From NCBI GenBank assembly GCA_030595835.1, contig JAUVLG010000001.1, forward strand, positions 4,614 through 68,613: a DNA stretch of 64,000 nucleotides, given 5' to 3'. The notes below the pieces were generated by a model that saw only the letters and a list, made by a program, of their open reading frames with translations, was not told where the DNA came from and made no database searches. Made by a program: the position numbers and the translations under genes. The DNA is from Candidatus Eiseniibacteriota bacterium. GTDB lineage: Bacteria > Joyebacterota > Joyebacteria > Joyebacterales > Joyebacteraceae. How positions within the stretch are numbered: position 1 is the first letter of the stretch; every line of letters begins with the position of its first letter. Positions 1-63,478 of the stretch are shown piece after piece.

Positions 1-496
1 GAACCCGGAGACGACCTCCGGCGGGCGCGCGCTCAAGTTCTACTCGAGCGTCAGGTTGGACATCCGTCGTATCGGCGCGCTCAAGACTGGAGACGTGATC
101 GTCGGTAACAGAACCAAGGTCAAAGTCGTGAAGAACAAGGTGGCGCCGCCGTTCCGGATCGCCGAGTTCGACATCATCTACGGGAAGGGCATCTCGCTCG
201 CTGGCGACTTGCTCGATCTGGGGATGGAGCACGGGCTGGTCACCCAGAAGGGAACCTGGTTCAGCTACGGTGACCTTCAGCTCGGGCAGGGGCGGGAACG
301 GTCCAGGACATATCTCGAAGAGGACGCCACCGTCCGGGAGCGGCTGGAGCGCGAGATACGTGAGGCCACGGGGCTGGTGGCTGGTCGCGCCGCGGCCCCT
401 GCTCCGGCGAAAGAGAAGTCGGCTGAGGTAGAGAGCAAGGCCAAGAAGGCTACGAAGAAGGAGCTGGCTCGGCAGGCGGTGGGCGCGAAGAAGTGA
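1..496 (+). CDS. recA: Recombinase RecA, C-terminal part (5' end lies outside the window)
   Basis: Frame-2 translation from nt 2 reads [25 protein letters not shown]...[26 protein letters not shown], the conserved RecA C-terminal core. It ends in a Lys/Ala/Glu-rich tail and a stop at 494-496. Confidence 0.9.
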
Positions 497-536
497 GGTC
501 TGAGGGACTCCACGCGGATGACGGGGACGGACGCCT

Positions 537-1178
537 GTGAGCGGCAGGATCACCGAGATCAGGAAGAGCCCGGGCGACGACCTGCGCCTGACGGTGTTCG
601 TCGACGGCTCTGAGGCGTTCACGGTCTCCGAGGAAGTCGCGCGCGAACTCAAGCTTTGCGTGGGATGCGAACTGGCCCCGGCGGCGACGGAGCGGCTGGG
701 GGAGAACGACGAGCGGAGCAGGGCCAGAGAGGCGGCTCTGAGGCTCCTGGCCGTCCGGGCGAGAAGCGAGGGCGAACTGGTCGACCGCCTGAGACGGAAG
801 GGCTTCACTGAGGAGCTGACCGCTGTCGTCGTGTCCGGTCTGGCCGAGGTTGGTCTGGTCGATGACGCTGCGTTTGCGAGGGCGTGGGCCGACGAGAAGA
901 TGAGGCTTCGTCCCATCGGACCGCGGCGACTGACATCTGAGCTTCTGTCGAAGCGGATACGCAAGGAACTGGTGGCCGTGGTTGTGGACGAGACCTTCCG
1001 AGAGCATTCTGAGCTCGAGCTGGCCCGCAGGGCGGTAGAGAAGAAGGTGCGAGTGTCAGGAGGCGCGGACGCCGCGAAGCGCCGCGCCCGCCTGCACTCG
1101 TTTCTGCTAAGAAGGGGCTTCTCCTACGAGGTCGCGGCCACGATCCTCAAGGAGATAGAGGGAGAGTCCGATGCCTGA
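537..1178 (+). CDS. recX: Recombination regulator RecX
   Basis: GTG start 40 nt after recA. The 213-aa product has three repeated helical modules (RLLAVRARSEGELVDRLRRKGF...) typical of RecX. The recA-recX-alaS synteny is conserved. Confidence 0.75.
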   Translation: MSGRITEIRKSPGDDLRLTVFVDGSEAFTVSEEVARELKLCVGCELAPAATERLGENDERSRAREAALRLLAVRARSEGELVDRLRRKGFTEELTAVVVSGLAEVGLVDDAAFARAWADEKMRLRPIGPRRLTSELLSKRIRKELVAVVVDETFREHSELELARRAVEKKVRVSGGADAAKRRARLHSFLLRRGFSYEVAATILKEIEGESDA

Positions 1179-3858
1179 CGGCATGTCTTCGAACGAGATC
1201 AGACGACTGTTCATCGAGTATTTCACGGAGCGGGGACACGAGCACGTGGAGAGCGCGCCCTTGATACCCCGCGACGATCCGACGCTTCTCTTCACGTCGG
1301 CGGGGATGGTGCCGTTCAAGCCCTACTACGTGGACGAGAACCCTCCGTTCAAGAGAGCGGTGTCCATCCAGAGGTGCCTCCGTCTGTCCGACCTGGACGA
1401 GGTCGGGCGCACCCCTTATCATGCGACGTTCTTCGAGATGCTCGGGAACTTCTCCTTCGGCGACTACTTCAAGGAAGAGGCGATCGAGTGGGGTTGGGAG
1501 TTCCTGACTGAGGTCATTGGTTTGCCCGCTGACCGTCTGTGGGTGACCGTCCACAAGGACGACACCGCGGCGGCCGAGATCTGGCGCACGCGAGTGAAGT
1601 TCCCGGTCGAGCGCATCGTGGCGCTCGGCGACGAGCACAACTTCTGGGGACCGGCCGGCGACTCGGGCCCCTGCGGCCCCTGTTCCGAGATACACCTCGA
1701 CATGGGAGCGGACGTCGGCTGTGGCAGGGCGGACTGCGATCCCGGATGCGACTGTGACCGTTTCCTGGAGGTCGGGAACCTGGTGTTCCCACAGTTCGTC
1801 CAGGCGGTAGACGGCACTCGCGAGCCGCTCAAGCGTCCCGGGATCGATACGGGTATGGGATTCGAGCGTCTCGCCAGCGTCGTCCAGGGGGCCGCGAGCA
1901 TCCACGAGACGGACACGGGACTGCCCGTGCTGGAGGCCGTTCGGAACGAGGCCGAGGCGGCAAGCGGCAAGCGGCCGCCCGAGGGCAAGCCGGGGATGGA
2001 ACTCATCGTCATCGCCGACCACGTCCGGGCCGCCACGTTCGCCATCGCGGAGAACATCCTGCCGTCAAACGAGGGTCAGGGTTACGTTATCAGAAGGCTG
2101 ATCAGGAGAGCCGTCCGTCGAGGGCTGTCCCTGGGCATAGATCAGCCGTTCTTGTACCGTCTCAGCGGTGTGGTGACCGAGACGATGGGAGAGGCGCATC
2201 CGCACCTCCTGCAGAAGCGTGAGCACATCGCTCTGGTTGTTCAGTCGGAGGAAGAGCGTTTCCACGAGACGTTGGCTGCGGGCAGTGCGGTGTTCGGGGA
2301 CATGATCGAATCGCTTGAGAGAAACGGCTCCAGGGTCGTTCCCGGAGATGTCGCCTTCAGCCTCTACGACACGTACGGATTCCCGCTGGACCTTACCCGG
2401 GAGATGGCAACCGAGCGCGGCTTCACCGTCGACGAGAAGGGCTTCCAGACCGCGATGGAAGAGCAGAAGGAACGCGGGAGGCGCGCTTCCACGTTCGCTG
2501 AGAGCAGCGACGCCGGGGTCTGGGAGGGACAGCGCGCTGAGACCGATTTTGTGGGGCACGAGCTGCCGTGCGCGTGTGGGGACGGCTCTGCATGCGAGAC
2601 GGCCGAGACGCTTCTGTCCGGTCCTGTTGCTACGGTCGTCACGGAAGCGAGGCGCATGAGCAACGATGGAGTGGAGTTCACACTGACCGAGAGCCCGTTC
2701 TACGCGGAATCGGGAGGGCAGGTCGCCGACACCGGAACTCTCACCGTCGGCGACGCGACCATCGACGTGGCGAATGTGTTGAGGAGAGACGAGCGCTACG
2801 CGCACGTTGCGAGCGACCCCGACCGGGTCGTACGACCGGGCGCACGAGCTGAGGCCCGTGTCGACGTTGCGAGGCGGCGCCTGATAGAGAAGAATCACAC
2901 CGTGACCCACCTGCTTCAGGCAGCGCTGCGTGCCGAGCTGGGTGACCACGTGCACCAGTCCGGTTCCTGGGTGGGTGCTGACAGGTTGAGATTCGACTTC
3001 ACGCATTTCTCGGAACTCTCAGGACGCGAGATCGGGGCCATCGAGGACCGGGTGAATGCCTGGGTCCGCGCTGATATTCCCGTCACGCCGGAGAGTATGA
3101 CGGTTGAGGCGGCGCTCGAGAGGGGAGCAATGGCACTCTTCGGCGAGAAGTACGGATCCCTGGTTCGCGTCGTCTGCATCGGGTGCGATGAATCCGGAGT
3201 GAGCCTCGAGCTGTGCGGCGGCACTCACGTCGAGCGCACGGGCGAGATAGGCGCCTTCTCGGTAGTGAGCGAGTCGAGCGTGGCCGCCGGCGTCAGAAGG
3301 ATAGAGGCAGTGACGGGCAGAACGGCATCCGCGCGGGCCCGCCACGATGCGGAGCTGCTCCGGGAGTTCATGAGCGTGCTCAAGGTGGCGCCGGATGAGA
3401 TGTTGGCCAAGGCCAGGGAACTGACGGCCGAGACATCTGAACTCAGGAAAAGCATCGAGAAGGAGAGACAGAAGGCGGCCGGAGGGTCGATTGACTCACT
3501 GATTGCCGGCGCCCGCGAGGTGGCCGGTGTGCGGATGTTGTCGGCACGCACCGATGCACCGGACATAAAGACACTTCGCGGACAGGCGGACCGGCTGCGC
3601 GACGGATTGGGCAGCGGCGCCGGCCTCCTGGCTGCTGTCACCGAAGGTGGGGTCATCCTGATAGCGGTGGTCACGGACGACCTGGTCAGTAAGGGCACGC
3701 TCAAGGCCGGAGACATCGTGCGGGAGGCCGCGGCGGTCATGGGAGGCCGCGGTGGAGGGAAACCGCACCTGGCGCAGGCGGGTGGCGGGGATCCGGCGCA
3801 ACTCGAGCAGGCTCTGGAGGCATTCTACGAGATCGCGGAGCGGCTGACCGGCAGTTGA
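1171..3858 (+). CDS. alaS: Alanine--tRNA ligase
   Basis: 895 aa. N-terminal SNEIRRLFIEYFTERGHEHVESAPLIP and FTSAGMVPFKPYY class-II motifs are present. It also has the zinc/editing region and a C-terminal DHHA1-like end. It overlaps the recX stop; the alternative start at 1183 reads MSSNEIRR. Confidence 0.95.
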   Translation: MPDGMSSNEIRRLFIEYFTERGHEHVESAPLIPRDDPTLLFTSAGMVPFKPYYVDENPPFKRAVSIQRCLRLSDLDEVGRTPYHATFFEMLGNFSFGDYFKEEAIEWGWEFLTEVIGLPADRLWVTVHKDDTAAAEIWRTRVKFPVERIVALGDEHNFWGPAGDSGPCGPCSEIHLDMGADVGCGRADCDPGCDCDRFLEVGNLVFPQFVQAVDGTREPLKRPGIDTGMGFERLASVVQGAASIHETDTGLPVLEAVRNEAEAASGKRPPEGKPGMELIVIADHVRAATFAIAENILPSNEGQGYVIRRLIRRAVRRGLSLGIDQPFLYRLSGVVTETMGEAHPHLLQKREHIALVVQSEEERFHETLAAGSAVFGDMIESLERNGSRVVPGDVAFSLYDTYGFPLDLTREMATERGFTVDEKGFQTAMEEQKERGRRASTFAESSDAGVWEGQRAETDFVGHELPCACGDGSACETAETLLSGPVATVVTEARRMSNDGVEFTLTESPFYAESGGQVADTGTLTVGDATIDVANVLRRDERYAHVASDPDRVVRPGARAEARVDVARRRLIEKNHTVTHLLQAALRAELGDHVHQSGSWVGADRLRFDFTHFSELSGREIGAIEDRVNAWVRADIPVTPESMTVEAALERGAMALFGEKYGSLVRVVCIGCDESGVSLELCGGTHVERTGEIGAFSVVSESSVAAGVRRIEAVTGRTASARARHDAELLREFMSVLKVAPDEMLAKARELTAETSELRKSIEKERQKAAGGSIDSLIAGAREVAGVRMLSARTDAPDIKTLRGQADRLRDGLGSGAGLLAAVTEGGVILIAVVTDDLVSKGTLKAGDIVREAAAVMGGRGGGKPHLAQAGGGDPAQLEQALEAFYEIAERLTGS

Positions 3859-3896
3859 CGGGCCAGCCGTGCGGGAGCCGAACGGAAGGGCGCACA

Positions 3897-4652
3897 ATGC
3901 GGGACATCGGCAGGACACTTGCGTGGCTGGAGAGCGGCATCGGGACTCTCGGTGCGCTCTATCTCGTGCTTCTGGACCCGGACAGGTTCGAGCCCGCGGA
4001 GAACGTGAGGCTGGCCGAGCTGGCCGTGGGGGCGGGAGCCGACGCGTTGCTTCTGGGGGGCAGCCTGTCCCTGAGGGAACGCTGTGACGAGACGGTGCGA
4101 GCCATCAAGGCCGCCGTGGACGTTCCCGTCATTATCTTCCCGGGCGATGTGGGCTTCGTGAGTGAGGCTGCTGACGCGATCCTGTTCCTGTCTCTCGTGA
4201 GCGGGCGCAACCCGCAGTTCCTCATCGGGGAGCACGTACGCGCGGCTCCCGTTCTGAAGAAGATGGGACTCGAGGCGATACCGACGGCGTACATGCTGGT
4301 CGACGGCGGCGTGACGACGTCCGTCGAGTTCATGAGTTCGACCAGACCCATCCCTCGCGATAAGCCGGACATAGCCATGGCGCACGCGCTCGCGGCCCAG
4401 TACCTGGGTCTACAACTCGCCTTCTTCGACGCGGGCAGCGGTGCCGCGGAGCACGTTCCCGAGGAATTGGTACGCGCCGTATCGGGGTACGTCGATCTGC
4501 CGATCATGGTCGGCGGGGGAATTCGTGAGCCCGAGGTGGCCGGGCGGCTGGTGGAAGCGGGCGCAGGCGTGATCATCACGGGCGACGTGGTCGAGAAGAC
4601 CGGTGACGCTGGACTTGTGAAGGCGATTGCTGCGGCGGTGCACGGGCATTAG
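3897..4652 (+). CDS. PcrB/GGGPS-family (hepta/geranylgeranyl)glyceryl phosphate synthase
   Basis: TIM-barrel prenyl-glycerol-phosphate synthase motifs are present: LVLLDPDR, LLLGGSLSL, IMVGGGIRE and VIITGD (compare B. subtilis PcrB LDPNK / IIGGS / GGGI / VVGNA). ATG at 3897 has a GGAAGG ribosome-binding site. The ORF track's 3855 start would overlap the alaS stop. Confidence 0.75.
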   Translation: MRDIGRTLAWLESGIGTLGALYLVLLDPDRFEPAENVRLAELAVGAGADALLLGGSLSLRERCDETVRAIKAAVDVPVIIFPGDVGFVSEAADAILFLSLVSGRNPQFLIGEHVRAAPVLKKMGLEAIPTAYMLVDGGVTTSVEFMSSTRPIPRDKPDIAMAHALAAQYLGLQLAFFDAGSGAAEHVPEELVRAVSGYVDLPIMVGGGIREPEVAGRLVEAGAGVIITGDVVEKTGDAGLVKAIAAAVHGH

Positions 4653-4716: not shown

Positions 4717-5790
4717 GTGGTTCGCATCAAGGCTCTGGTTCTTTCCGGCGGCAAGGGTACGCGGCTGAGACCGATCACACACACGAGCGCAAAGCAGCTT
4801 GTCCCGATAGCGAACAAGCCCATTCTCTTCTACGGGCTAGAGGCGATCAGGGATGCCGGGATCGTCGATGTTGGCATCATTGTCGGGGAGACGGCGAAGG
4901 AGATAGAGGCCGCCGTCGGTGACGGGTCGTCGTTCGGACTCAAGGTCTCGTTCATCCACCAGGAGGCCCCGCTGGGGCTGGCCCACGCCGTGAAGATAGC
5001 TGCTGACTACATCGGTAAGGAGCCGTTCGTGATGTACCTCGGCGACAATCTGATCATGGGTGGCATAACCGATTTCGTCGCCGAGTTCCAGAAGAACAAA
5101 CCGAACGCGCAGATACTGCTGGCGCGCGTCGACAACCCGAGCGAGTTCGGCGTGGCTGAGCTGGCCGGGGGACGGGTGGAGCGTCTGGAGGAGAAGCCGG
5201 AGAACCCGCGCTCGAACCTCGCGCTCGTCGGGGTCTACATGTTCGACGCCGAGATCTTCGAGGCGGTCGATAGCATCAAGCCGTCGGCACGCAATGAACT
5301 TGAGATCACCGATGCGATCCAGAGGTTGATAGATACGGGGAAAGAGGTGAGGGCGCACGAGGTCATTGGTTGGTGGAAGGACACGGGGAAGCTCGACGAT
5401 ATCCTCGAAGCCAATCGGATGATCCTCGAGACCGTCAAGCGTGACATCGCGGGCAGCGTGGACAGTGACTCGCGCGTCGACGGGAAGGTGGTGATAGCGG
5501 AGGGAGCTCACGTGCAGGGCAGCGTACTGCGTGGACCTCTCGTCATAGGACGCGACTGCAAGATCGTGAAGTCGTACATAGGGCCCTTCACCTCCATCTA
5601 TCACGACGTGACGATCCAGAACTCGGAGATCGAGCACAGCATCGTGCTCGAGAACTCCAGGATCTCGAATCTCGGGAGCAGGATGGAGAAGAGCCTTATC
5701 GGGAAGGACGTCGAGATCAGCAAGAGCGCCACGATGCCCAAGGCCTTCCGCTTCATGGTCGGTGACGCCAGTCGGATCGAGGTGCCGTAG
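4717..5790 (+). CDS. rmlA: Glucose-1-phosphate thymidylyltransferase, long form with C-terminal left-handed beta-helix
   Basis: N-terminal LVLSGGKGTRLRPITHTSAKQLVPIANKP nucleotidyltransferase signature is present. The length (357 aa) and C-terminal hexapeptide-repeat region match long-form RmlA-like enzymes. GTG start. Confidence 0.7.
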   Translation: MVRIKALVLSGGKGTRLRPITHTSAKQLVPIANKPILFYGLEAIRDAGIVDVGIIVGETAKEIEAAVGDGSSFGLKVSFIHQEAPLGLAHAVKIAADYIGKEPFVMYLGDNLIMGGITDFVAEFQKNKPNAQILLARVDNPSEFGVAELAGGRVERLEEKPENPRSNLALVGVYMFDAEIFEAVDSIKPSARNELEITDAIQRLIDTGKEVRAHEVIGWWKDTGKLDDILEANRMILETVKRDIAGSVDSDSRVDGKVVIAEGAHVQGSVLRGPLVIGRDCKIVKSYIGPFTSIYHDVTIQNSEIEHSIVLENSRISNLGSRMEKSLIGKDVEISKSATMPKAFRFMVGDASRIEVP

Positions 5791-6665
5791 TGGGAAGCGA
5801 GGCGCCGGAGAGAGGACGCGGCAGGACGAGAGTTCTGGTCACGGGTTCGGCCGGGATGCTGGGAACGGAGTTGGTGCGTCTCTTTCAGCGCGAGTTCGAC
5901 GTGACCGAGGCCGACCTGGGCGAGTTCGACATACGGGACAGCGTTGTGACCGACGCGTTCGTCGCGGGGGCCACTCCCGACATCGTGATCAACTGCGCCG
6001 CCTACACGGACGTCGACGGCGCTGAGAGCGATTCGGAGGAGGCGTTCGCGGTCAACGCGAGGGGAGCGGGGAACATCGCGGCCGCGGCGGAGAGGGTCGG
6101 CGCTCGGGTGGTGCACGTCAGTACGGACTACGTGTTCGACGGCACGGGCGACAGGCCCTATGAGGAGACGGACGAGCCCGGGCCAGTCTGCGTGTACGGG
6201 CGTTCGAAGCTCGCCGGTGAGCTAGCCGTCTCAGAGGCTGCTCAGGACGCACTGATAGTCCGTACGGCGTGGCTCTACGGGCAGGCGGGGCCGAACTTCA
6301 TTGAGACGATATTGACTCTGGCGTCCTCTGGACGGGATTTGAAGGTCGTGGAAGACCAGGTGGGTGCTCCGACCAACGTTCGAGACCTTGCGCGGACGAT
6401 TCTGGAACTAATTGCAGTCGGGGCCACCGGTGTGGTAAACGCTACGAACCGGGGGTGGTGTACCTGGTTCGAGTTTGCCCGTGAGATACTCGACCAGGCG
6501 GGATATCGGGACATGCCCATAGAACCCGTGACCAGTGAGCAATTTCCTCGGCCCGCGCCGCGGCCAGGCTATTCGGTTCTGTCTCTCGCGAGGCTCGTAT
6601 CGCTCACGGGGAAGGAACCGCGGAGCTGGCAGGATGCGCTGACCGAGTACCTTGCCGAAAGGTAG
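5790..6665 (+). CDS. rmlD: dTDP-4-dehydrorhamnose reductase
   Basis: VLVTGSAGMLGTELV Rossmann start and an RmlD-like layout (YTDVD..., VHVSTDYVFDG, YGRSKLAGE with YxxxK). Its GTG start overlaps the rmlA TAG stop. Confidence 0.75.
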   Translation: MGSEAPERGRGRTRVLVTGSAGMLGTELVRLFQREFDVTEADLGEFDIRDSVVTDAFVAGATPDIVINCAAYTDVDGAESDSEEAFAVNARGAGNIAAAAERVGARVVHVSTDYVFDGTGDRPYEETDEPGPVCVYGRSKLAGELAVSEAAQDALIVRTAWLYGQAGPNFIETILTLASSGRDLKVVEDQVGAPTNVRDLARTILELIAVGATGVVNATNRGWCTWFEFAREILDQAGYRDMPIEPVTSEQFPRPAPRPGYSVLSLARLVSLTGKEPRSWQDALTEYLAER

Positions 6666-6670
6666 GTCGA

Positions 6671-7261
6671 ATGGGACGAGAGACTGAGACGGGCGCCGAC
6701 CGAGTGAGAGCAATCTTCGCGGAGTCAGCGAGGGTGCACGAGATGGCGGCTGAGTCGCTTTCTGATGTGATCGCTGCTGCGGCAACTGCTTTGACGAACG
6801 CGCTCCGGGCTGGGCGGAAAGTGCTGCTGTGCGGCAACGGAGGGAGCGCGGCCGACGCGCAGCACATGGCGGCCGAGCTGGCGGGCAGGCTGCGTCTGGA
6901 GCGTGGGGGCCTGCCGGCCATCGCGCTAACGGTGAACTCGTCGGTGATGACCGCGCTGGCGAACGACTACGGGTACGACATGGTCTTCGCGCGGCAGGTG
7001 GAGGCCCTCGGGCGAGAGGGAGACGTACTGATCGGTATCTCTACGAGCGGTAGGTCGGCCAACGTTGTTAGGGCCCTGGAGGCGGCCAGAGCTGCCGGAC
7101 TCGTGACCGTGGGGCTGGTCGGTCGGGACGCAGGGCCCATGGAGGGCCTGTGCGATCACCTGATCGCGGCTCCGATCCAGGACACACAGCGCATTCAGGA
7201 GATACACATCGCCGCCGGACATGCGATGTGCGAGATAATCGAATCGGCGTTGTTCGGCTAG
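6671..7261 (+). CDS. gmhA: Phosphoheptose (sedoheptulose-7-phosphate) isomerase
   Basis: SIS-domain motif [22 protein letters not shown] is near-identical to the GmhA consensus. Size is 196 aa. Confidence 0.8.
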
Positions 7262-7907: not shown

Positions 7908-7952
7908 CGGTGGGCAGGGCGCCAGAAGAAGCGCGGAAGGGACCCTCGGTTG

Positions 7953-8840
7953 ATGCTGCGACACATCATCAGGATGCTCAGACCGGAGCAGTGGACGAAG
8001 AACCTCGTGCTCTTCGCCGGACTGCTCTTCGCCGGCGGGCTCGGGACACGGACGCTCGTTCTCCACGCGGCCGGGGGGTTCTTCGCGTTCTGCGCGCTCT
8101 CGAGCGCGACGTACGTGTTCAACGACCTCATGGACGTGAAACGTGATCGTGAGCACCCGATCAAGAAGCACAGGCCACTCGCTGCCGGCGACTTGCCGGT
8201 CGGGCTCGCTGCTGCCATCGCGGTTGTGCTGGCGGCGCTGGGGCTAGTCTGGGCCTACAAGCTTCACCTGAACTTCGGGTTGGTAGCGGTCGGCTACCTG
8301 ACCCTCCAGGTGCTCTACAGCCTGGCGCTCAGGAACATGGTCGCGCTCGATGTGATGGCAATCGCCGTGGGGTTTGTGCTGCGCGCCGTCGGGAGCGTGG
8401 AGGTTCTCAAGGGGCCCGCTCCGCATACGGAACTCTCTCCGTGGCTTCTCGTCTGCACGTTCTTCCTGGCTCTGTTTCTGGGGTTGGGGAAGCGCCGTCA
8501 CGAGGTCCTGGCCCTGGGCGAGGATGCGGGGAGGCATCGCCCGGTACTCAAGCATTACCCACCGCCGCTCATCGACTCATTGTTCGGTGTGGTGACCGCG
8601 TCGACCGTGATCTCATACACGATCTACACCATCTGGCCCGGTACCGTTGCGAAGGTGGGCGGCACCGGACTTGTCTACACGGTGCCGTTCGTGGTGTACG
8701 GTGTCTTCCGCTACTTCTATCTGATGTTCGCGGCAGGCGCGGGAGGAGAACCCTCGCGGGCGCTCCTGTCGGACGTCCCGCTCGCGGTCAATATAGTCCT
8801 GTGGGTGGTTGTTGTGGCCTTCGTGATCTACGCAGGGTAA
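7953..8840 (+). CDS. UbiA-family prenyltransferase, decaprenyl-phosphate 5-phosphoribosyltransferase (DPPR synthase)-like
   Basis: Polytopic membrane protein. It has RPEQWTKNLVLFAG and NDLMDVKRDREHPIKKHRPLAAG, matching the RPRQWVKN / NDVRDVEADREHPTKRFRPIAAG signature of mycobacterial Rv3806c-type enzymes rather than UbiA/MenA or archaeal DGGGP synthase. Confidence 0.65.
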   Translation: MLRHIIRMLRPEQWTKNLVLFAGLLFAGGLGTRTLVLHAAGGFFAFCALSSATYVFNDLMDVKRDREHPIKKHRPLAAGDLPVGLAAAIAVVLAALGLVWAYKLHLNFGLVAVGYLTLQVLYSLALRNMVALDVMAIAVGFVLRAVGSVEVLKGPAPHTELSPWLLVCTFFLALFLGLGKRRHEVLALGEDAGRHRPVLKHYPPPLIDSLFGVVTASTVISYTIYTIWPGTVAKVGGTGLVYTVPFVVYGVFRYFYLMFAAGAGGEPSRALLSDVPLAVNIVLWVVVVAFVIYAG

Positions 8841-8943: not shown

Positions 8944-9849
8944 TTGAGACTGCAAGCGGTCAGGGTAGAAGCCTTCGCGAAGATCAACCTCGGACTGGCC
9001 GTGACGGCGTCACGGCCTGACGGCTATCACGACATAGAGACGCTGTTCCAGAGTGTGTCGTTGTCGGACACACTCATCCTGGCGCCCCTGGAGGGCGCTC
9101 CGCGAGCGGCTTTGAGCGTAAGCGGGATCCCCGTTCCTGACGGCGCCGAGAATCTCGCGTGGAGGGCGGTCGACGTCGCGCTGGCGGAGTTCGGGTGCCC
9201 CGGTGTGTCCATTGACCTTACGAAGCGGATACCGGTGGCAGCCGGGTTGGGTGGCGGCAGTGCCGACGCGGCGGCGGTCCTGCGTGGCATCGATGCCCTG
9301 TTCGAGCTAGGGGCCGCTCGCGCGACGCTGCTCAGGCTGGCGGCGCTCCTGGGCTCGGACGTGCCGTTCATGTTGTTCGGAGGGACGGCTCTGGGGACCG
9401 GGAGGGGGGAGAGCCTCGAAGCTCTGCCCGCGCTCAGAGGCGTCTGGTTCGTGCTGGCGACGCCGCGCTTCGGGGTCTCGGCGGGGGAGGCCTACGAAAT
9501 GGCGAGAATCGGGTTGACAGACCCCGTCAACTTCATTAGAGTAAACTGTTTAGCTGTCCGGGAAGGCGATATCCCGATGCTTGCCAAGGGGCTTCGGAAC
9601 GACCTGGAAGCTGGTGTCGTATCTGCATGTCCGGAGGTCGCGCGCGTGAAGGAGGCTCTGCTTTCGCACGGTGCCTTTGCGGCGGTGATGTCCGGGAGCG
9701 GGCCGACGGTGGTCGGTCTCGTCAAAGACGAGCCGGCCGGACAGAGTGTAGCGTCACGCCTTTCAGGGCGTGGTTGGGACATACATGTCGTAGCGCCGAT
9801 CGATGTCGGCCAGAGCGTGACTGCGGTCGAGGACAAACCACACGGGTGA
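8944..9849 (+). CDS. ispE: 4-diphosphocytidyl-2-C-methyl-D-erythritol kinase
   Basis: GHMP-kinase motifs AFAKINLGL and PVAAGLGGGSADAAAVL. TTG start with a GGGAGGG ribosome-binding site. Confidence 0.85.
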   Translation: MRLQAVRVEAFAKINLGLAVTASRPDGYHDIETLFQSVSLSDTLILAPLEGAPRAALSVSGIPVPDGAENLAWRAVDVALAEFGCPGVSIDLTKRIPVAAGLGGGSADAAAVLRGIDALFELGAARATLLRLAALLGSDVPFMLFGGTALGTGRGESLEALPALRGVWFVLATPRFGVSAGEAYEMARIGLTDPVNFIRVNCLAVREGDIPMLAKGLRNDLEAGVVSACPEVARVKEALLSHGAFAAVMSGSGPTVVGLVKDEPAGQSVASRLSGRGWDIHVVAPIDVGQSVTAVEDKPHG

Positions 9850-10248: not shown

Positions 10249-10322
10249 TGGGGCGTCGTCAAGTGGCAAGACACGGGACTTTGGCTCCCGCATCGGAGGT
10301 TCGAATCCTCCCGCCCCAGCCA
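10249..10322 (+). tRNA. tRNA-Gln (anticodon TTG)
   Basis: 74-nt cloverleaf folded by hand. Acceptor TGGGGCG/CGCCCCA, D stem GTC/GAC, anticodon stem CGGGA/TCCCG with loop CTTTGGC, T arm GGAGG-TTCGAAT-CCTCC, discriminator G and encoded CCA. Overall similar to bacterial tRNA-Gln. Confidence 0.8.
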
Positions 10323-10392
10323 GATTCACTGCTGGGGCGGTGTGGCTATATCGGCGCTGGCAACGTGGTGGACGTGTTCCGGAGGAGACGAG

Positions 10393-11325
10393 ATGCTTAA
10401 CGATCTGGGCCTTTTCACCGGCAATGCCAACCGGGCGCTCGCTTCCGAGATCGCTGGATACCTGGGGCTCAGGCTGGGTGAGGCCGCGGTGGGAAGGTTC
10501 CGGGATGGGGAGATCAACGTCAGCATCTCCGAGAACGTGCGCGGCATGGACGCGTTCGTGATACAACCGACGGCCCCTCCAAGCGAGACGTTGTTCGAGC
10601 TGCTCATAATGATAGACGCTCTGAAGAGGGCGTCCGCACGACGAATCACGGCGGTTGTGCCTTACTTCGGCTACGCCAGGCAGGACCGCAAGGATCGCCC
10701 GCGGGTGGCGATCACGGCGAAGCTTGTTGCGAACCTGCTGACCGTTGCAGGGGCGGACAGGATTCTGACCATGGACCTTCACGCCCCGCAGATACAGGGG
10801 TTTTTCGACATACCGATGGATCACATCTACGCGGCGCCAGTGCTCCTTCGCTATTTCGATGAGCACGCCGGGAACGATCTCGTCATCATGGCGCCGGACA
10901 TCGGTAGCATTAAGATGGGAAGGGCGTTCGCCAAGCGACTCGGTGCGTCGCTCGGTTTCGTCGACAAGCGACGCCCGAGGCCCGACGCGACCGAGGTGAT
11001 GAACGTCGTTGGTGAGGTGGAGGGCAAGCACGTCATCATGATCGACGACATCATAAGTACTGGAAGCTCGATGATCCAGGCGGCGGCGGCCGTGATGAAG
11101 ATGGGGGCAGCGAAGGTGACGGCGGGCGCGACTCACGCGCTCTTCGCGGAAGGCGCCGTGGAGGCGCTCAGCGATTCGCTGATTGAGGAGATCGTCGTTA
11201 CGAACACGCTCAGCAACGAACATTGCGGATCGGATAAGATCCGGACTCTGTCAGTCGCGGAGTTGCTTGGGGAAGCGATCGACAGGATACATGGGGAGAA
11301 GTCGGTGAGCTCGCTCTTCGTCTGA
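10393..11325 (+). CDS. prs: Ribose-phosphate pyrophosphokinase
   Basis: MLNDLGLFTGNANRALASEIAGYLG start. PRPP-binding loop HVIMIDDIISTGSSM. ATG at 10393 is preceded by GGAGGAG; the longer 10342 start lacks a ribosome-binding site. Confidence 0.9.
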   Translation: MLNDLGLFTGNANRALASEIAGYLGLRLGEAAVGRFRDGEINVSISENVRGMDAFVIQPTAPPSETLFELLIMIDALKRASARRITAVVPYFGYARQDRKDRPRVAITAKLVANLLTVAGADRILTMDLHAPQIQGFFDIPMDHIYAAPVLLRYFDEHAGNDLVIMAPDIGSIKMGRAFAKRLGASLGFVDKRRPRPDATEVMNVVGEVEGKHVIMIDDIISTGSSMIQAAAAVMKMGAAKVTAGATHALFAEGAVEALSDSLIEEIVVTNTLSNEHCGSDKIRTLSVAELLGEAIDRIHGEKSVSSLFV

Positions 11326-18469: not shown

Positions 18470-19684
18470 CTACCTATACATCGCCTTGATGCTGCCCCAG
18501 CTCTTCTCTTCAACGGCTGAACCGGTCCAGTCCTCAAGCCATGTGTCGTCCAGCATGATCCCGGCACCGCCAGCGGAACCCGGACCGCACCCGTTATCGG
18601 TCGAGTAGAACGTCAGCTTGAACTGGAACGCCGTTCCAGGCAGGAGCGAACTGATATCTACGCCAGCAATACCGCTGGTGCCCCAACCGTCGCACTGACC
18701 GAAGTCTCCCCACCACGCGCCGGTCATCACCCAGTTGGCGCCACCGTCGACAGTGACCTCCTCGGTCCAGTAGTCGTTGTCCACCGTGGGAACTTCGGCG
18801 TGGAGCAGGAAGCGGAGCGTGCAGGTCACGCTGCCGACAACACTGACGGCCGGAGAGATCAGGGAGTTGTTGAGGTTCGGAGGCGTCAGGGACGTGTCCG
18901 CGTCGTCGCCGCACCACCAGCTGTGCGGGTCGCTGTAGGCCGGGCAGCACCTGTCGATGATGTGCCACCAGTCGCCCGAAGTCGCCGGGATACCGGGCAC
19001 GCAGAGGCCGCCGCTCTCGCCGTCATCGTAGAAATACACGTAGCCGCCGAAGTAGTCGAAGACCTTCACGTTGTCGCACGCGAAGCCGCCACCGACGGAC
19101 GCATAGAGACCGTCCTGATCCGACCAGGCGCCGTCCGACAGGAAGCGGAAACGGGCGTTGAGCGGATTGTCATACGTCTGGAGAATGAAACCGTAGATGC
19201 CGATATCGGTCCACGGCTGCGTGCCGTCGTAGCCACGGTTCAGGTCCACGTAGACACCGAGGCTCTCGGCCTGCACGTACGTGTAGTCGTAGCCCGCCTC
19301 CGAGTCATGACGGAACGCGTATGTCAGGATCGGATACGTGGCGCCCGTCAGGTCCACTGTCGGGATGACCAGTCTGTCGTCCCAGCTGTTGCCGTAACCA
19401 CCGTCGGCATCGTAGTCGAAGCTACCGCACCACCAGGACTGACCGGCGAAGGCCATGTACGCGTCCAGGTGGAAGTGAGGCACCGATGTGGCGGTGTTGT
19501 CGACGGACGTCCAGCCGGCGGTGCCGGCCTCCATGTCGTCGAAGAACAGTATGACGGGATTGCGTGAGTGCGGTGCGTCGACATCGGTCGTGTAGTTCGC
19601 GGCCGTCTTCCTGGCTACTGCGGTCGTTGCAAGGGCGAACACAGCGGCAACAACTATCAGCACACAAAGCGTTCTCTTAAGCAT
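18470..19684 (-). CDS. Secreted hypothetical protein (Sec signal peptide; Trp/Asp/Gly/Tyr-rich, Cys-containing)
   Basis: Only convincing minus-strand gene; it fills an otherwise gene-free gap. The start at 19684 gives MLKRTLCVLIVVAAVFALATTAVA-RK (classic signal peptide) with a GGAG ribosome-binding site. The track's longer start is 19756. No catalytic motif was recognised. The C-terminus ends ...EEKSWGSIKAMYR. Confidence 0.6.
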   Translation of the reverse strand: MLKRTLCVLIVVAAVFALATTAVARKTAANYTTDVDAPHSRNPVILFFDDMEAGTAGWTSVDNTATSVPHFHLDAYMAFAGQSWWCGSFDYDADGGYGNSWDDRLVIPTVDLTGATYPILTYAFRHDSEAGYDYTYVQAESLGVYVDLNRGYDGTQPWTDIGIYGFILQTYDNPLNARFRFLSDGAWSDQDGLYASVGGGFACDNVKVFDYFGGYVYFYDDGESGGLCVPGIPATSGDWWHIIDRCCPAYSDPHSWWCGDDADTSLTPPNLNNSLISPAVSVVGSVTCTLRFLLHAEVPTVDNDYWTEEVTVDGGANWVMTGAWWGDFGQCDGWGTSGIAGVDISSLLPGTAFQFKLTFYSTDNGCGPGSAGGAGIMLDDTWLEDWTGSAVEEKSWGSIKAMYR

Positions 19685-20268
19685 CGCTTCAAACTCCATG
19701 TTGAAGCCCTGGGTCGTGAGGGGAGGTGTCACATGCCCCTCTCTGGTCCATCCCAATCGCCGGGCGGAAGATCCGCCCCGGATGTAAGAACGGTTGTCTT
19801 GATATCCTCCTTTGCTGCAGCCGAGCCCGTTGGCTCAAATGTCCCCTGAACGGTTCTCGCGGGGCCTACAGCTTCGTTCTTCGTGCAATTGACGTGCCAA
19901 GAGCGGCTTGTGACCTCTGTAACGAGCACAAGTGTGGGGGATTAGGAACTCAAGAGAGCAGTCGAGTAGCTCGAAGGAGAACTCGCGCCTCGCATGGCCC
20001 CGGGATCATGGAACGGGCCGCAGAGCATCATGCAAGCACCCGGTTGCACCGTGCCCTGCACGCGGCGGGGGGTGCCTCGCGGTACCCGTGGATTCTCCGC
20101 AACTTGCGACGGTGAAAGCCCTTGACCGCCTGTTCGATGACGGATATTCTGACGGTATTGCTGACTATTCGAGAGCGCGTTCGGAAGCGGCCGTTCTTCG
20201 GTGCGGGTACCCGCGCCCCGGAACTGCCGCGGAGGGCGCGCAGGCCCACAAGGCGTGAGCCCTGAGAC

Positions 20269-21681
20269 ATGACTGAGAAGAGCAACCTGAGCGCAATCCC
20301 TTCCGTGGATGCCGTCATGGCCCATCTCGCTGAGAGGGGCCTCGACGCGATCCAGCCGAGAGCGATCGCCCTGCGACTCGTGAGGGAGATCCTCGAACGC
20401 GAGCGCGCGGCTATGCTCGAGGGAGACGAGTGCGACGGTGAGTCAGCAGCGCGCGCGCGGCGCCGCATCCTGGCCGACGTGGAGGCAGAGATCATCCATT
20501 CTCCCGCGCGGGGGCTCGTCCCGGTAATCAATGCGACCGGGATCGTCGTTCACACGAACCTGGGCAGGGCTCCGCTGTCCGAGGAGGCCGTGGCCGCCGT
20601 CGCGGAGGTTGCGCGGGGCTACTCGAACCTGGAGTACGATCTTCTGCGGGGCGCTCGCGGCAAGCGTGACTACCTCGTGACGGACGCACTGTGCGAACTG
20701 ACGGGGGCCGAGGATGCGCTTGTCGTTAACAACAACGCTGCGGCCGTCCTCTTGGTGCTGAACACGCTCGCCCAGGGCCGTGAGGTTATCGTTTCGCGCG
20801 GTGAGCTGATCGAGATCGGCGGATCGTTCAGATTGCCGGACGTGTTCGAGCGCAGCGGCTCTCGGATGGTGGAAGTGGGAACGACGAACCGTACTCACCT
20901 TTCGGACTTCCGGGATGCGATCAGAAGCAGTACCGGCGCCCTGTTGTCGGCTCACTGGAGCAACTACTCGATATCGGGTTTCGTCGAGCGCGTGTCTCTC
21001 CGGGAACTGGCGGCGCTCGGGACGCACTTCGGTATTCCCGTGATTCACGATCTCGGGAGTGGCATCCTTGCCGAGCCCGCGAAGCTGGGACTCGCGGGCG
21101 AGATGACGGTCAGGGAAAGCGTCTCCGCGGGAGCGACGGTGTCGACGTTCAGCGGTGACAAGATACTCGGGGGCCCGCAGGCGGGGATCGCAGTGGGCAC
21201 GGCGAGCGCCATCGCCCGCATGAGGGCCAATCCACTGATGCGGGCGCTTCGCCCCGGGAAGCTGACCCTGGCCGCGCTGGCGGCGACCCTTCAGAGCTAT
21301 CTCAGGGGAGAAGCGGAGACGGCGGTCCCTGTGCTGGCGTCCATCCTGATCCCGCTCGACGCGCTCGCCCGAAGGGCAGAGGGTATGGCCGACTCGCTGG
21401 CGTCCTCGCTGGGCGATGTGGCGCGGGTGTCGGTGGTGGATCTGGAGGGACTGGTCGGCGGCGGAGCCGCGCCGGAGAGGGTGATACCCAGCATCGGTCT
21501 CGAGATAGAGCCGCGAGGTGATGTTTCGACGGGGTTCGTCAAATCGGCGATGCTGAGGCAATCGCCCGCCGTCGTGGCCCGGACTCATGAAGACCGGATC
21601 ATCCTGGATCTGAGGACGGTCGCTGAGAGTCAGGATCCCGCGGTTATTGCCGCGTTGCTTAGCGCATTCGAGGAGAAATAG
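20269..21681 (+). CDS. selA: L-seryl-tRNA(Sec) selenium transferase
   Basis: 470 aa. SelA-specific N-terminal domain, PLP fold and FSGDKILGGPQAGI lysine motif. Confidence 0.9.
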   Translation: MTEKSNLSAIPSVDAVMAHLAERGLDAIQPRAIALRLVREILERERAAMLEGDECDGESAARARRRILADVEAEIIHSPARGLVPVINATGIVVHTNLGRAPLSEEAVAAVAEVARGYSNLEYDLLRGARGKRDYLVTDALCELTGAEDALVVNNNAAAVLLVLNTLAQGREVIVSRGELIEIGGSFRLPDVFERSGSRMVEVGTTNRTHLSDFRDAIRSSTGALLSAHWSNYSISGFVERVSLRELAALGTHFGIPVIHDLGSGILAEPAKLGLAGEMTVRESVSAGATVSTFSGDKILGGPQAGIAVGTASAIARMRANPLMRALRPGKLTLAALAATLQSYLRGEAETAVPVLASILIPLDALARRAEGMADSLASSLGDVARVSVVDLEGLVGGGAAPERVIPSIGLEIEPRGDVSTGFVKSAMLRQSPAVVARTHEDRIILDLRTVAESQDPAVIAALLSAFEEK

Positions 21682-27825: not shown

Positions 27826-27945
27826 CAAGTTCCTTCGGGGCGGGGTGCAAGTCCCCACCGGCGGTCAGAGCCCGCGAGCGGAGCAATCCGCAGAGCCTGT
27901 GTAATCCAGGCGCCGACAGTGAAAGTCTGGATGGTAGGAGGAGCC
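27826..27945 (+). promoter_or_regulatory. FMN riboswitch (RFN element) upstream of ribD
   Basis: Highly conserved RFN segments are present: UUCGGGGCGGGGUGCAAGUCCCCACCGGCGGU, then AGAGCCCGCGAGCG, then CCGACAGUGAAAGUCUGGAUGGUAGGAG. They match the B. subtilis ribD-leader consensus (GGUGAAAUUCC...CCGACAGUGAAAGUCUGGAUGGGAGA). A U-rich expression platform (GCGUUUUCUUUGCCCGGCGGUGUUUCUC) follows. Confidence 0.85.
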
Positions 27946-28080
27946 GGCACGGTAGCAGTTTGTACTCGTGTCTCGTAGCGCCTCGAAGGATGTACGGGGC
28001 GCGTTTTCTTTGCCCGGCGGTGTTTCTCAGCGTCGCAGGGGATCCTTCTCACTGCTACATGAGGCGGTGGCGGTTTGAGT

Positions 28081-29262: not shown

Positions 29263-29274
29263 GGAGAGCCCTTG

Positions 29275-29946
29275 ATGTTCACAGGTCTCGTGGAGTGCAA
29301 GGGAAGAGTCGTGTGGATGCGTCGGGTGGCCGGCGCGGCGATCATTCGGATCACGGCACCCTTCGCTTCCGAACTCGAGCAAGGCGAGAGCGTGTCGGTG
29401 AAGGGCGTCTGCCAGACGGTCGTCCGGTCCGACGCCGCCGGGTTCGAGGTCGAGGCCGTGGCCCAGACGCTTGCGGTCACGACGCTCGGGGAGTTGGGGA
29501 GTGGCGACGAAGTGAACCTCGAACGCGCGCTCAGACTGGGCGACAGGCTCGGTGGCCACATGGTCGCCGGGCACGTGGACGGCGTCGCCCGCGTTCTGGA
29601 ACTCCGCAGCGACAGGGACGGGACTCGGCTGACGCTGGAACTGCCCGCTCCGCTTGTTCGGTACGTCGTGGCGCGTGGTTCCATCGCGGTGGACGGTGTC
29701 AGTCTGACGGTGGCGGAGGTATCGGGCGAGCGAGTGACCGTGGCTCTGATCCCGGAGACGCTGCGAGCCACAGGGGCCGCTTCGTACGAACCCGGCATGA
29801 AGGTCAACATAGAGACGGACATTCTGGCGAAACACCAGGAGAAACTGCTCGAACGACAGGGTGAAGCATCGGGCCCGCCGGACGGGAAGAAGAGCGCAGG
29901 CGGGTTGACAGAGAAACGACTCAGGGAACTGGGATTCATGGAGTGA
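29275..29946 (+). CDS. ribE: Riboflavin synthase (alpha chain)
   Basis: MFTGLVE start and two lumazine-binding repeats. AAGGAGAG ribosome-binding site 6 nt upstream of ATG 29275. Confidence 0.85.
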
Positions 29947-29951
29947 GGATC

Positions 29952-31208: not shown

Positions 31209-31225
31209 CGGAGGGAACTGAAGAC

Positions 31226-31693: not shown

Positions 31694-31719
31694 TGGACGG
31701 CGAGAGGGGCGTTCCATTC

Positions 31720-63095: not shown

Positions 63096-63131
63096 TCTTG
63101 AGGGTCGAAGCATTTGAGGGAGGTGTGGCAC

Positions 63132-63407: not shown

Positions 63408-63478
63408 GGCTACCCTCGGCGGGCAGCCGGACGGACGATGCTGTGACGAACAACTGAATTCGTTCACAGGAGGTTACG

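Follow-up and report, generated by a model that had tools for sequence, protein, structure and literature searches.

Gene content of the locus

The stretch of DNA analysed in this study, hereafter the window, is 64 kb long and carries a gene of the GGGP synthase (GGGPS) family, of group II type, at positions 3897 to 4652 of the forward strand, which encodes 251 amino acids from an ATG to a TAG. The original prediction of a PcrB/GGGPS-family gene at this position, directly after alaS, was borne out, since the ORF is exact, its product matches the Pfam PcrB profile at 152 bits, and the ORF of alaS (1171 to 3858, forward strand), the conserved upstream neighbour, ends with the GGGPS ATG lying 38 nt downstream. 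From sequence reading and orthologue conservation, a Shine-Dalgarno-like GGAAGGG was recognized at 3884 to 3890 on the forward strand, 6 nt upstream of the ATG. This motif and the ATG at 3897 are invariant or nearly so across five orthologous loci, while the remaining spacer is variable. A TTG at 3855 was rejected as the start, as it is unconserved and the spacer indels among the orthologous loci are not multiples of three. The GC3 of the ORF is 0.80, like that of the adjoining genes. When positions 1 to 16.5 kb were scanned for promoters and terminators, the matches were no commoner than in shuffled sequence, and none fell in the alaS-GGGPS spacer.

Downstream of the GGGPS gene, a block of rmlA (long form), rmlD and gmhA was found at 4717 to 7261 on the forward strand (TIGR01208, 478 bits; TIGR01214, 322 bits; TIGR00441, 209.6 bits). 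The sole UbiA-superfamily gene in the window lies at 7950 to 8840, also on the forward strand, and is decaprenyl-phosphate phosphoribosyltransferase-like (NF008977, 264.7 bits against a cut-off of 234), and ispE of the MEP pathway is located at 8944 to 9849. The presence in the window of gmhA, a GT9 heptosyltransferase and a SurA-like protein makes the host look diderm, in line with the Gram-negative type of genome first proposed. The suggested link to the FCB superphylum was likewise upheld, as the best genome matches are MAGs of Candidatus Eisenbacteria, a group treated as sister to the FCB phylum Joyebacterota (PMC13271369).

Family, group and fold

With reference to the profile searches, residues 22-245 of the protein cover positions 8-223 of the 226 in PF01884 (PcrB; 152.4 bits, cut-off 23.9), and the scores on NCBIfam NF003198 (283.7 bits, cut-off 247) and TIGR01769 (GGGP; 213.2 bits, cut-off 161.6) both exceed their thresholds. 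The group I models remained far below their cut-offs of 169-320 (TIGR04146, 40 bits; TIGR04147, 34 bits; NF003199, 51.4 bits), including the PcrB subfamily model NF003199 with its cut-off of 169. The same division was noticed among the PDB matches, where group II structures scored 157-206 bits (1e-45 to 1e-60) and group I structures 24-32 bits (about 1e-6). Of the placements considered beforehand, group II therefore stands and a PcrB-like assignment does not, group I models and structures reaching just 24-51 bits. A different TIM-barrel function, which had been considered as well, received no support, as the HisA/HisF and TrpA families gave merely 20-29 bits.

The AlphaFold model (pLDDT 96.4) displays eight strands, an N-terminal helix at residues 6-18, a helix at 142-147, and just a three-residue helix (85-87) between strands 3 and 4. 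The predicted fold is the modified (beta-alpha)8 barrel of the family, with its extra alpha0, degenerate alpha3 and split alpha5'. Foldseek aligned the model with group II GGGPS structures (Mt, Ta, Tv, Fj) at TM 0.85-0.91 and rmsd 1.3-2.0 A, and all of its top matches were GGGPS, PcrB or MoeO5 structures. The database search returned 4094 homologues, and in a neighbour-joining tree the window GGGPS falls inside an Eisenbacteria clade, itself within a bacterial clade, with the archaeal sequences outside. Judged by its sequence, the protein is classified as a group II GGGP synthase and not as a Bacillus-type PcrB; group II is specific for C20 chains and comprises archaeal (IIa) and bacterial (IIb) enzymes.

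Active-site residues and the acceptor pocket

The roles of individual residues were taken from a review (PMC9385802) and transferred by alignment. D27 (codon 3975 to 3977, forward strand) occupies the position of the Mg2+/diphosphate-binding Asp in the alignment to 4MM1 (Mt D25, Af D13), where 140 of 150 diverse representatives harbor Asp; both this role and the limiter assignment were described previously (PMC9385802). V88, encoded with F87 at 4155 to 4160 of the forward strand, stands at the group II chain-length limiter position (Mt V86, Fj I90). V, I or L is found there in 141 of the 150 representatives, and V88 supplies the expected small aliphatic residue on alpha3', while F87 beside it is specific to the clade. 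F145 (codon 4329 to 4331, forward strand) aligns with the aromatic anchor Mt W141 and lies in helix alpha5', the predicted helix 142-147. As the aromatic anchor is a hallmark of hexamers (PMC7888582), this one position by itself predicts that the window enzyme would be hexameric. Kept, in all, are D27, S56, V88, Y132, F145, GSG 180-182 and GGG 206-208.

The original prediction credited the gene with all catalytic motifs, which does not hold at three positions. On strand beta6, F176-F177-D178 (codons 4422 to 4430, forward strand) takes the place of the canonical Tyr-x-Glu of the glycerol-phosphate site, whose aligned counterparts are Fj Y178/E180, Mt Y172/E174 and Af Y165/E167. The Tyr/Tyr/Glu triad (Af Y124/Y165/E167; Fj Y134/Y178/E180) is consequently incomplete, with Y132 present and followed by F176 and D178. 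The phosphate motif of beta-alpha-6, -7 and -8 comprises GSG 180-182, GGG 206-208 and the invariant G229, and the next residue is D230 (codon 4584 to 4586, forward strand), which the alignment and predicted structure place in the beta-alpha-8 phosphate-binding loop, where helix alpha8' begins. Elsewhere in the family, group II enzymes have Thr at this position, and group I enzymes and many bacterial ones have Asn. The phosphate role of this loop, and that of the Tyr and Glu as stereospecificity determinants, were described earlier, and the triad residues were called strictly conserved for catalysis and for the recognition of glycerol-1-phosphate (G1P) (PMC9385802). It was also observed that the review gives Y134/Y178/E180 as Mt numbering, and in our alignment these are F. 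johnsoniae numbers.

At position 176, 132 of the 150 representatives carry Y and 9 carry F; at position 178, 102 carry E and 43 carry D; and at position 230, Thr, Asn or Ser is found in 134. Conservation of the triad, reported as strict in the literature, is therefore not strict. The combination of F176, D178 and D230, fixed in the Eisenbacteria-type clade, occurs in none of the 150 diverse representatives and in 99 of 120 close homologues. Of the five clade-specific positions, four are in the active site or next to it, though positions 176 and 230 served to define the clade. The acceptor pocket of the Eisenbacteria-type clade is remodelled through F176, D178 and D230, plus F87 beside the limiter. 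Since the Tyr and Glu regarded as essential for G1P stereorecognition and catalysis are substituted, and a carboxylate is brought into the phosphate-binding loop, activity on G1P could be weakened or altered. In the literature searched, we found no assayed enzyme with this F176/D178/D230 pocket.

An unlikely reading, for which the distribution of the F/D/D combination and the clustering of clade-specific positions nevertheless speak, is that the clade pocket (F176, D178, D/E230, F87 and M204) alters the substrate, whether by relaxed or inverted discrimination towards sn-glycerol-3-phosphate (G3P), by the use of another phosphorylated polyol or acid, or in prenyl length. The assignment of Tyr and Glu as stereospecificity determinants and the different acceptor taken by MoeO5 of the same family (PMC9385802) point the same way, and discrimination relaxed or inverted towards G3P would fit the absence of a G1P dehydrogenase (G1PDH). 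Against this, Asp for Glu is common, many Bacteroidota being among the 43 representatives that display it, and Phe for Tyr has arisen independently in some Bacteroidia, so the pocket may simply tolerate changes; moreover, the phosphate loops are intact and some G3P promiscuity is already found in canonical enzymes (PMC7852524). The narrower proposal that the pocket of the Eisenbacteria/Joyebacterota-type clade (F176, D178, Asp/Glu230 and F87) would prenylate a non-canonical acceptor, notably G3P, is less probable still. G3P, a compound made by these bacteria, is the most interesting acceptor candidate. Were it used, isoprenoid ether lipids formed in nature would have bacterial stereochemistry, and the long retention of GGGPS in a lineage lacking G1PDH would be explained.

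The replacement of two canonical catalytic-site residues could also be taken as the mark of a decaying or non-catalytic relic, or of another TIM-barrel function that resembles GGGPS. Our data make this highly improbable, because dN/dS values against eight orthologues range from 0.10 to 0.25, all orthologous loci have an intact ORF, the HMM scores exceed the equivalog cut-offs while HisA/HisF and TrpA stay at the low values given above, and conservation extends to the Mg-binding Asp, the limiter and the phosphate loops. The gene is under purifying selection.

Gene neighbourhood and inheritance

The GGGPS gene is embedded in a housekeeping string, recA-recX-alaS-GGGPS-rmlA-rmlD-gmhA, and not in an archaeal-lipid operon. 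Of 78 related loci, 38, drawn from several candidate phyla, have alaS next to GGGPS, the lineages being Eisenbacteria, Latescibacterota, Edwardsbacteria, WOR-3, Stahlbacteria, Hatepunaea and unclassified MAGs. The order recA-recX-alaS-GGGPS recurs in at least six candidate phyla, a distribution that speaks for old vertical descent rather than recent transfer. The gene is best explained as having long been passed down vertically within the FCB-related radiation. The synteny comparison further revealed that the rmlA-rmlD-gmhA block accompanies GGGPS in Eisenbacteria-type, Edwardsbacteria-like and WOR-3 loci. During the search for partners, unfiltered ORFs within 7 kb of GGGPS were clustered over the 78 loci and the recurrent ones annotated; just housekeeping or unrelated genes were recurrent at this distance, namely those for RsgA, a PfkB kinase, PtsI, MetK, a GT4 glycosyltransferase, BamA, PurE, MgtE and a histidine kinase.

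Pathway partners and fate of the product

No G1P dehydrogenase was detected in the 64-kb window by Pfam scans of all long ORFs, and a GldA/G1PDH-superfamily probe gave nothing in the window or in 79 related loci (78 loci of about 1.2 Mb in total, together with locus L079 of about 21 kb), in agreement with the earlier remark that no egsA/araM is visible nearby. The probe, E. coli GldA, was validated on the G1PDH structures of the PDB, which it matched at 3.5e-17 and 5e-11. The original prediction held that the lack of any G1PDH, joined with a failure to detect ether isoprenoid lipids, would speak against it; the G1PDH part is a weak test, because FCB bacteria with active GGGPS and without G1PDH are documented (PMC7852524, PMC6431249).

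The other partners were equally missing from the surroundings. A polyprenyl-synthase domain is absent from the window ORFs in Pfam scans, a tblastn search for GGPP synthase (GGPPS) with the Cloacimonadota enzyme gave no match, there is no ORF in the 64-kb window resembling DGGGP synthase (DGGGPS), and no Eisenbacteria-type locus has DGGGPS or GGPPS less than 10 kb from GGGPS. The UbiA gene at 7950 to 8840 was considered as a DGGGPS and ruled out, as it reaches 21.7 bits on the DGGGPS model NF009521 (cut-off 296), its best PDB match is 8J8J (1.9e-32) with no DGGGPS structure matched, and against a profile built from 120 FCB DGGGPS sequences it obtains 28 bits, where genuine ones reach 197-337 bits. 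When this profile was searched against a database of 5.8 billion proteins, no Eisenbacteria-labelled protein appeared among the best 120 matches, few of which carry names; the named organisms were Cloacimonadota (most), Chitinophagaceae, Pontibacter and Caldithrix.

Two possibilities for the product have to be weighed against this background. One, which we regard as possible though doubtful, is a complete archaeal-type diether pathway, with DGGGPS, GGPPS and CDP-activation encoded elsewhere in the genome, G1P drawn from another route or by uptake, and a mixed membrane as the outcome, of the kind proposed for Cloacimonetes. Coleman et al. surveyed 12 FCB phyla and recorded homologues of GGGPS and DGGGPS in every one (PMC6431249), the Cloacimonetes genes are functional in E. 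coli in the absence of araM/egsA (PMC7852524), bacterial uptake systems for G1P exist (PMC12718374), and V88 is compatible with a C20 chain. Cloacimonadota, on the other hand, have a GGPPS-DGGGPS-GGGPS operon, whereas no partner stands in the window or within 10 kb in Eisenbacteria-type loci, and the nearby UbiA gene is DPPR-synthase-like.

In Bacillales, heptaprenylglyceryl phosphate loses its phosphate and gains an acetyl group, and it does not count among the bulk membrane lipids. The other possibility, equally doubtful, is that the window enzyme would make, in a similar way, a low-abundance mono-ether lipid, perhaps modified, glycosylated, or serving as an anchor or carrier. GGGPS is solitary, without a second prenyltransferase nearby, and is kept beside the sugar-nucleotide genes rmlA-long, rmlD and gmhA in at least three phylum-level lineages; added to this are the Bacillus precedent and the fact that a role for the Bacteroidetes product has not been established (PMC7888582; PMC6431249). 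This reading is inferred, as the conserved gene order may be mere inheritance of a housekeeping string, and no modifying enzyme was identified.

Proposed function and significance

Taking the evidence together, we take the gene, with a probability of roughly 0.8, to code for a functional prenyltransferase, a soluble (beta-alpha)8 barrel from the bacterial branch of GGGPS group II, its activity being assigned by homology. In the mechanism so proposed, Mg2+ bound by D27 would ionise a C20 prenyl diphosphate, the small limiter V88 would set the chain length, and the glycerol phosphate would be held by the standard phosphate loops, GSG 180-182 and GGG 206-208; its terminal hydroxyl would then attack the carbocation, giving a geranylgeranyl-glyceryl-phosphate ether. 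Group II enzymes of Bacteroidetes are known to make C20 ethers (PMC7888582), and the GGGPS and DGGGPS of Cloacimonetes yield archaeal-type lipids in E. coli (PMC7852524).

GGGPS, which forms the first ether linkage in archaeal-type lipids, determines the stereochemistry and the ether and isoprenoid character of archaeal lipids, and bacterial copies therefore bear on the 'lipid divide' and on the natural existence of mixed membranes. Bacterial GGGPS is known across the FCB superphylum, as a rule in the absence of G1PDH, and the window gene is ordinary save for its replaced pocket residues. It places Eisenbacteria among the GGGPS-bearing bacteria, and our literature search for Eisenbacteria with GGGP found no paper. 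This study adds that several candidate phyla have the gene at a common chromosomal position behind recA-recX-alaS, a pattern more in keeping with ancient vertical inheritance than with recent transfer, and that one large clade has replaced residues thought invariant for G1P recognition. The F/D/D clade lends itself to testing which glycerol-phosphate enantiomer a bacterial GGGPS uses.

Comparison with known systems

The closest solved structure by sequence is the GGGPS of Methanothermobacter thermautotrophicus (Mt; PDB 4MM1, group IIa, hexamer; E 5.5e-60), with 46% identity over 214 residues, TM about 0.89 and rmsd 1.3-1.7 A. The two proteins have in common the Mg Asp, S54/S56, the limiter Val, Y130/Y132, the aromatic anchor W141/F145, and the GSG and GGG motifs. 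They differ in that Mt Y172, E174 and T226 correspond to F176, D178 and D230, and in that the window enzyme has a two-residue insertion before helix alpha5' and a bacterial host. The GGGPS of Flavobacterium johnsoniae (Fj; PDB 4JEJ, group IIb, dimer) is a weaker match (4.3e-45). It shares with the window enzyme the limiter position (I90 for V88) and, with other Bacteroidetes enzymes, the bacterial clade of the tree, but it harbors Arg at the anchor where the window enzyme has Phe and keeps Y178, E180 and the Thr, and Bacteroidota loci are without the alaS linkage.

The system of Candidatus Cloacimonetes (Villanueva et al. 2021, PMC7852524) resembles the window in its FCB-superphylum host, its group II GGGPS and its lack of egsA/araM. 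In Cloacimonadota, GGGPS is last in the GGPPS-DGGGPS-GGGPS operon (locus L036), whereas the window gene is solitary after alaS; the Cloacimonadota enzyme keeps Tyr, Glu and Thr, while the window enzyme, 44% identical to it, has the F/D/D pocket. Bacillus subtilis PcrB (heptaprenylglyceryl phosphate synthase, group Ib; PDB 1VIZ/3VZX) is more distant, with an E-value of about 1e-6 and about 20% identity, and differs in its limiter architecture (helix alpha4a), its C35 substrate and its dimeric state. It nevertheless belongs to the same Pfam family, displays the same barrel fold (TM 0.75-0.78) and is also a bacterial enzyme, making an ether lipid that does not belong to the bulk of the membrane.

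Gene model and family assignment

The GGGPS gene lies on the plus strand, running from an ATG at 3897 to a TAG at 4650-4652, and encodes 251 aa; the gap to the alaS stop codon (3858) is 38 nt, which puts the gene directly downstream of alaS as the original prediction had placed it. The ORF listing shows the same frame open back to a TTG at 3855. Across five orthologous loci, the ATG and a GGAAGGG motif (3884-3890, six nt 5' of the ATG) are kept, the TTG position is CTG in two of the five, and the alaS-GGGPS spacer carries indels with lengths that are not multiples of three. The TTG was therefore rejected as a start, and the predicted coordinates, 3897-4652, represent the right gene model. The promoter and terminator scan found nothing promoter-like or terminator-like standing out between alaS and GGGPS. 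Third-position GC of the ORF is 0.80, resembling the adjoining genes, 4094 homologues were recovered by database search, and comparison with eight orthologues, pair by pair, gave dN/dS of 0.10-0.25; this is a genuine gene maintained by selection.

Membership of the PcrB/GGGPS family was confirmed by PF01884 (PcrB, Pfam; 152 bits) and by the NCBIfam models NF003198 (283.7 bits, cut-off 247) and TIGR01769 'phosphoglycerol geranylgeranyltransferase' (213.2 bits, cut-off 161.6), with the HisA/HisF and TrpA TIM-barrel families reaching merely 20-29 bits. Within the family, the protein belongs to group II. The group I models (Archaeoglobus type, haloarchaeal type and PcrB subfamily) gave 34-51 bits against cut-offs of 169-320, and the PcrB and A. 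fulgidus GGGPS structures about 24-32 bits; the solved group II structures, namely 4MM1 (M. thermautotrophicus), 6JO3 and 6NKE (Thermoplasma) and 4JEJ (F. johnsoniae), gave 157-206 bits. The predicted PcrB/GGGPS placement thus stands for the family and not for the PcrB type, since group II models and structures far outscore group I. The AlphaFold model, built from 65 homologues (mean pLDDT 96.4), displays eight strands, an N-terminal helix (6-18), a three-residue helix (85-87) alone between strands 3 and 4, and a short helix (142-147) as the counterpart of alpha5'. Foldseek ranked all group II structures at the top (TM 0.85-0.91, rmsd 1.3-2.0 A), followed by PcrB, AfGGGPS and MoeO5 (TM 0.7-0.84, rmsd about 3 A). 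Neighbour joining on labelled sequences nested the protein within an Eisenbacteria clade, itself inside a single bacterial clade with Poribacteria, Neomarinimicrobiota, Latescibacterota, Cloacimonadota, WOR-3 and Bacteroidota, with the archaeal sequences outside; the method is crude, so the tree gives placement and not deep history.

Active site and its remodelled pocket

Residue roles were taken from PMC9385802 and PMC7888582 and mapped by alignment. Conserved are D27 (Mt D25, Mg/diphosphate), S56 (Mt S54), Y132, GSG 180-182 and GGG 206-208, as well as V88, the group II limiter (Mt V86/Fj I90), which indicates a C20 substrate. The aromatic anchor position is likewise conserved as F145 (Mt W141); an aromatic residue there is a hallmark of hexameric GGGPS (PMC7888582), and the protein is probably hexameric. 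The claim that all catalytic motifs are present was not borne out, as F176 (Fj Y178/Mt Y172/Af Y165), D178 (Fj E180/Mt E174/Af E167) and D230 of the beta-alpha-8 loop (Asn in group I, Thr in characterised group II enzymes) are non-canonical by alignment. The Tyr and Glu have been termed 'strictly conserved' and credited with stereospecificity and with polarising the attacking hydroxyl (PMC9385802). Alignment to the PDB chains showed that Y134/Y178/E180, given there as Mt numbering, are F. johnsoniae (4JEJ) numbers, the Mt counterparts being Y130/Y172/E174.

To judge how unusual this pocket is, an exhaustive search covering 1.84 billion proteins supplied 150 sequences for comparison, each representing a cluster at 50% identity. 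Position 176 is Y in 132 and F in nine, position 178 is E in 102 and D in 43, and position 230 is N in 65, T in 61, S in eight and D in three. At 178, Asp is therefore frequent in nature as a substitute for Glu, and to call the conservation 'strict', as published, is an overstatement. No sequence among the 150 has F+D+D at once; this combination is carried by 99 of the 120 database homologues nearest to the protein (seven others have Glu at 230) and by 16 of the 18 Eisenbacteria-type loci, the remaining two (L012 and L015) having Glu at 230. Screening for positions at least 90% conserved within the F+D+D clade and present in at most 10% outside yielded N36, F87 (adjoining the limiter), F176, M204 (strand beta7) and D230; as 176, 178 and 230 defined the clade, only N36, F87 and M204 count as independent findings.

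Judged from these comparisons, the pocket has been remodelled within one lineage and then kept fixed under purifying selection. The substitutions most likely reflect neutral tolerance; that they shift acceptor or enantiomer preference would be a minority possibility, and a role in which the product stems from a changed acceptor is rated as improbable, with the credited roles of the Tyr and Glu on one side and the frequent Asp at 178 on the other. The remodelled pocket is the single feature deserving a bench test.

Gene neighbourhood and host lineage

The gene order, on one strand and with recA to GGGPS spanning 56-4652, is recA (3' end)-recX-alaS-GGGPS-rmlA (long form)-rmlD-gmhA-udk-UbiA-type gene-ispE-spoVG-tRNA-Gln-prs-L25-pth-H+-PPase-ychF, and onwards. 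The alaS-GGGPS adjacency was found in 38 of 78 related loci, mostly with recA-recX upstream, from at least six candidate phyla (the sources being Eisenbacteria, Latescibacterota, Edwardsbacteria, WOR-3, Stahlbacteria, Hatepunaea and unclassified MAGs), and in none of the Bacteroidota loci among the 78. The order GGGPS-rmlA (long)-rmlD-gmhA also occurs in Edwardsbacteria-like (L037, L039, L040) and WOR-3 (L044) loci. This shared order across phyla favours a long vertical residence of GGGPS in the FCB-related radiation; as a sign of a functional link to the neighbours it is weak evidence. In a further related locus, L079 (ENA contig_51055, 265-kb), pgsA-pgpA-cinA-ligT lie upstream of recA, and alaS, rmlD, gmhA and H+-PPase are among many housekeeping genes called as fragments, which looks like frameshift errors of a long-read assembly.

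The closest genomic matches are Candidatus Eisenbacteria MAGs (GGGPS protein identity 83-91%, neighbours collinear). NCBI taxonomy places the phylum Eisenbacteria under 'Bacteria candidate phyla', and a recent paper regards it as the sister of Joyebacterota, which belongs to the FCB superphylum (PMC13271369). The gmhA, GT9 heptosyltransferase and SurA-like chaperone genes of the window agree with the predicted Gram-negative-type genome.

Partner genes for ether lipids

Scanning every long ORF of the window against Pfam brought up no Fe-ADH/G1PDH-type protein, no polyprenyl synthase and a single UbiA protein, at 7950-8840 (+). It passed the NCBIfam decaprenyl-phosphate phosphoribosyltransferase model (264.7 bits, cut-off 234) and matched the M. 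tuberculosis Rv3806c structure 8J8J at 1.9e-32. It reached 21.7 bits on the DGGGPS model (cut-off 296) and 28 bits on a profile from 120 FCB DGGGPS, on which the genuine DGGGPS of loci L036, L038 and L055 gave 197-337. It was rejected as a DGGGPS on these scores and matches, and is therefore not the enzyme that forms the second ether bond. Outside Actinobacteria that make arabinan, a DPPR-synthase-like protein would not be expected. Of the 18 Eisenbacteria-type loci, 12 have the gene at the equivalent place and the other six end short of the position; L079 has it too. The related loci of other phyla lack it in the vicinity of GGGPS. In the window, prs (PRPP synthase, 10342-11325) lies 1.5 kb downstream of it.

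An E. coli GldA probe, which picked up G1PDH structures of archaea (3.5e-17 and 5e-11), found no relative in the window or in 79 related loci (78 amounting to about 1.2 Mb, and L079 to about 21 kb); together with the Pfam scans, this upholds within the window the prediction that no egsA/araM lies nearby. As tblastn queries, the GGPPS and DGGGPS of the Cloacimonadota locus L036 had no match in the window or any Eisenbacteria-type locus. No Eisenbacteria-labelled protein was among the best 120 matches listed for the FCB DGGGPS profile, which proves nothing on absence. The GGGPS gene here is outside any archaeal-lipid operon.

Other features of the window

An FMN riboswitch (27827-27946 (+), Rfam RF00050, 107 bits) precedes a ribD-ribE-ribBA-ribH-nusB string (28075-32133). 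Some 29 kb on one strand throughout (32884-61679 (+)) form a cell-envelope polysaccharide cluster that contains several GT2, GT4 and GT9 glycosyltransferases, a radical SAM protein (33782-34918), a GT2 and Bac_transf fusion (50763-53036), DUF362, LPG_synthase_TM and YfhO-like proteins, two Phosphodiest/sulfatase-type proteins, a Polysacc_synt_2 dehydratase, a DegT aminotransferase and a FemAB-like acetyltransferase. A bacterial microcompartment locus begins at 62343-63775 (+) with a PduL-type phosphotransacylase (PF06130) and, behind it, two BMC-domain shell proteins, and continues past the window end. The ORFs 18470-19756 (-), 58250-59536 (+) and 36065-36919 (+) have coding-like GC3 and match no Pfam family at E <= 1e-5; of these, 18470-19756 (428 aa) is the sole convincing minus-strand gene of the window and matches a local GC skew dip. 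A selA (selenocysteine synthase) gene lies at 20269-21681 (+) (PF03841, 435 bits); no tRNA-Sec was found in the window, where tRNA-Gln (10249-10322) is the sole tRNA.

Comparison with known systems

The original prediction was largely correct, with three corrections: the group II assignment, the non-canonical motifs and the location outside an archaeal-lipid operon. We put at roughly 80% the probability that the protein would be an active C20-specific glycerol-phosphate prenyltransferase. For the fate of its product, a diether membrane lipid is a tentative possibility: GGGPS and DGGGPS homologues occur in 12 of 12 FCB phyla surveyed, with G1PDH in two alone (Coleman et al., PMC6431249), and the search of the window yielded no DGGGPS. 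A minor mono-ether lipid, with GGGPS standing solitary here, is an equally tentative possibility; the Bacteroidetes group II enzymes give C20 ethers of unknown function (PMC7888582). Regarding the G1P source, E. coli given the Cloacimonetes enzymes makes lipids of the archaeal type with no egsA/araM, and G1P can come from an unknown bacterial route (Villanueva et al., PMC7852524); G1P uptake systems have also been described in bacteria (PMC12718374). No paper linking Eisenbacteria with GGGP synthesis was found in the literature searched. Given the published FCB, Cloacimonetes and Bacteroidetes work, this GGGPS is therefore one more case of a known type. It differs in its setting from Cloacimonadota L036, where three abutting genes (1267-3751), GGPPS (prenyl diphosphate synthase)-DGGGPS-type UbiA-GGGPS, form the tight FCB 'archaeal lipid' operon published by Villanueva et al. 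(PMC7852524), whereas the GGGPS of the window is solitary.
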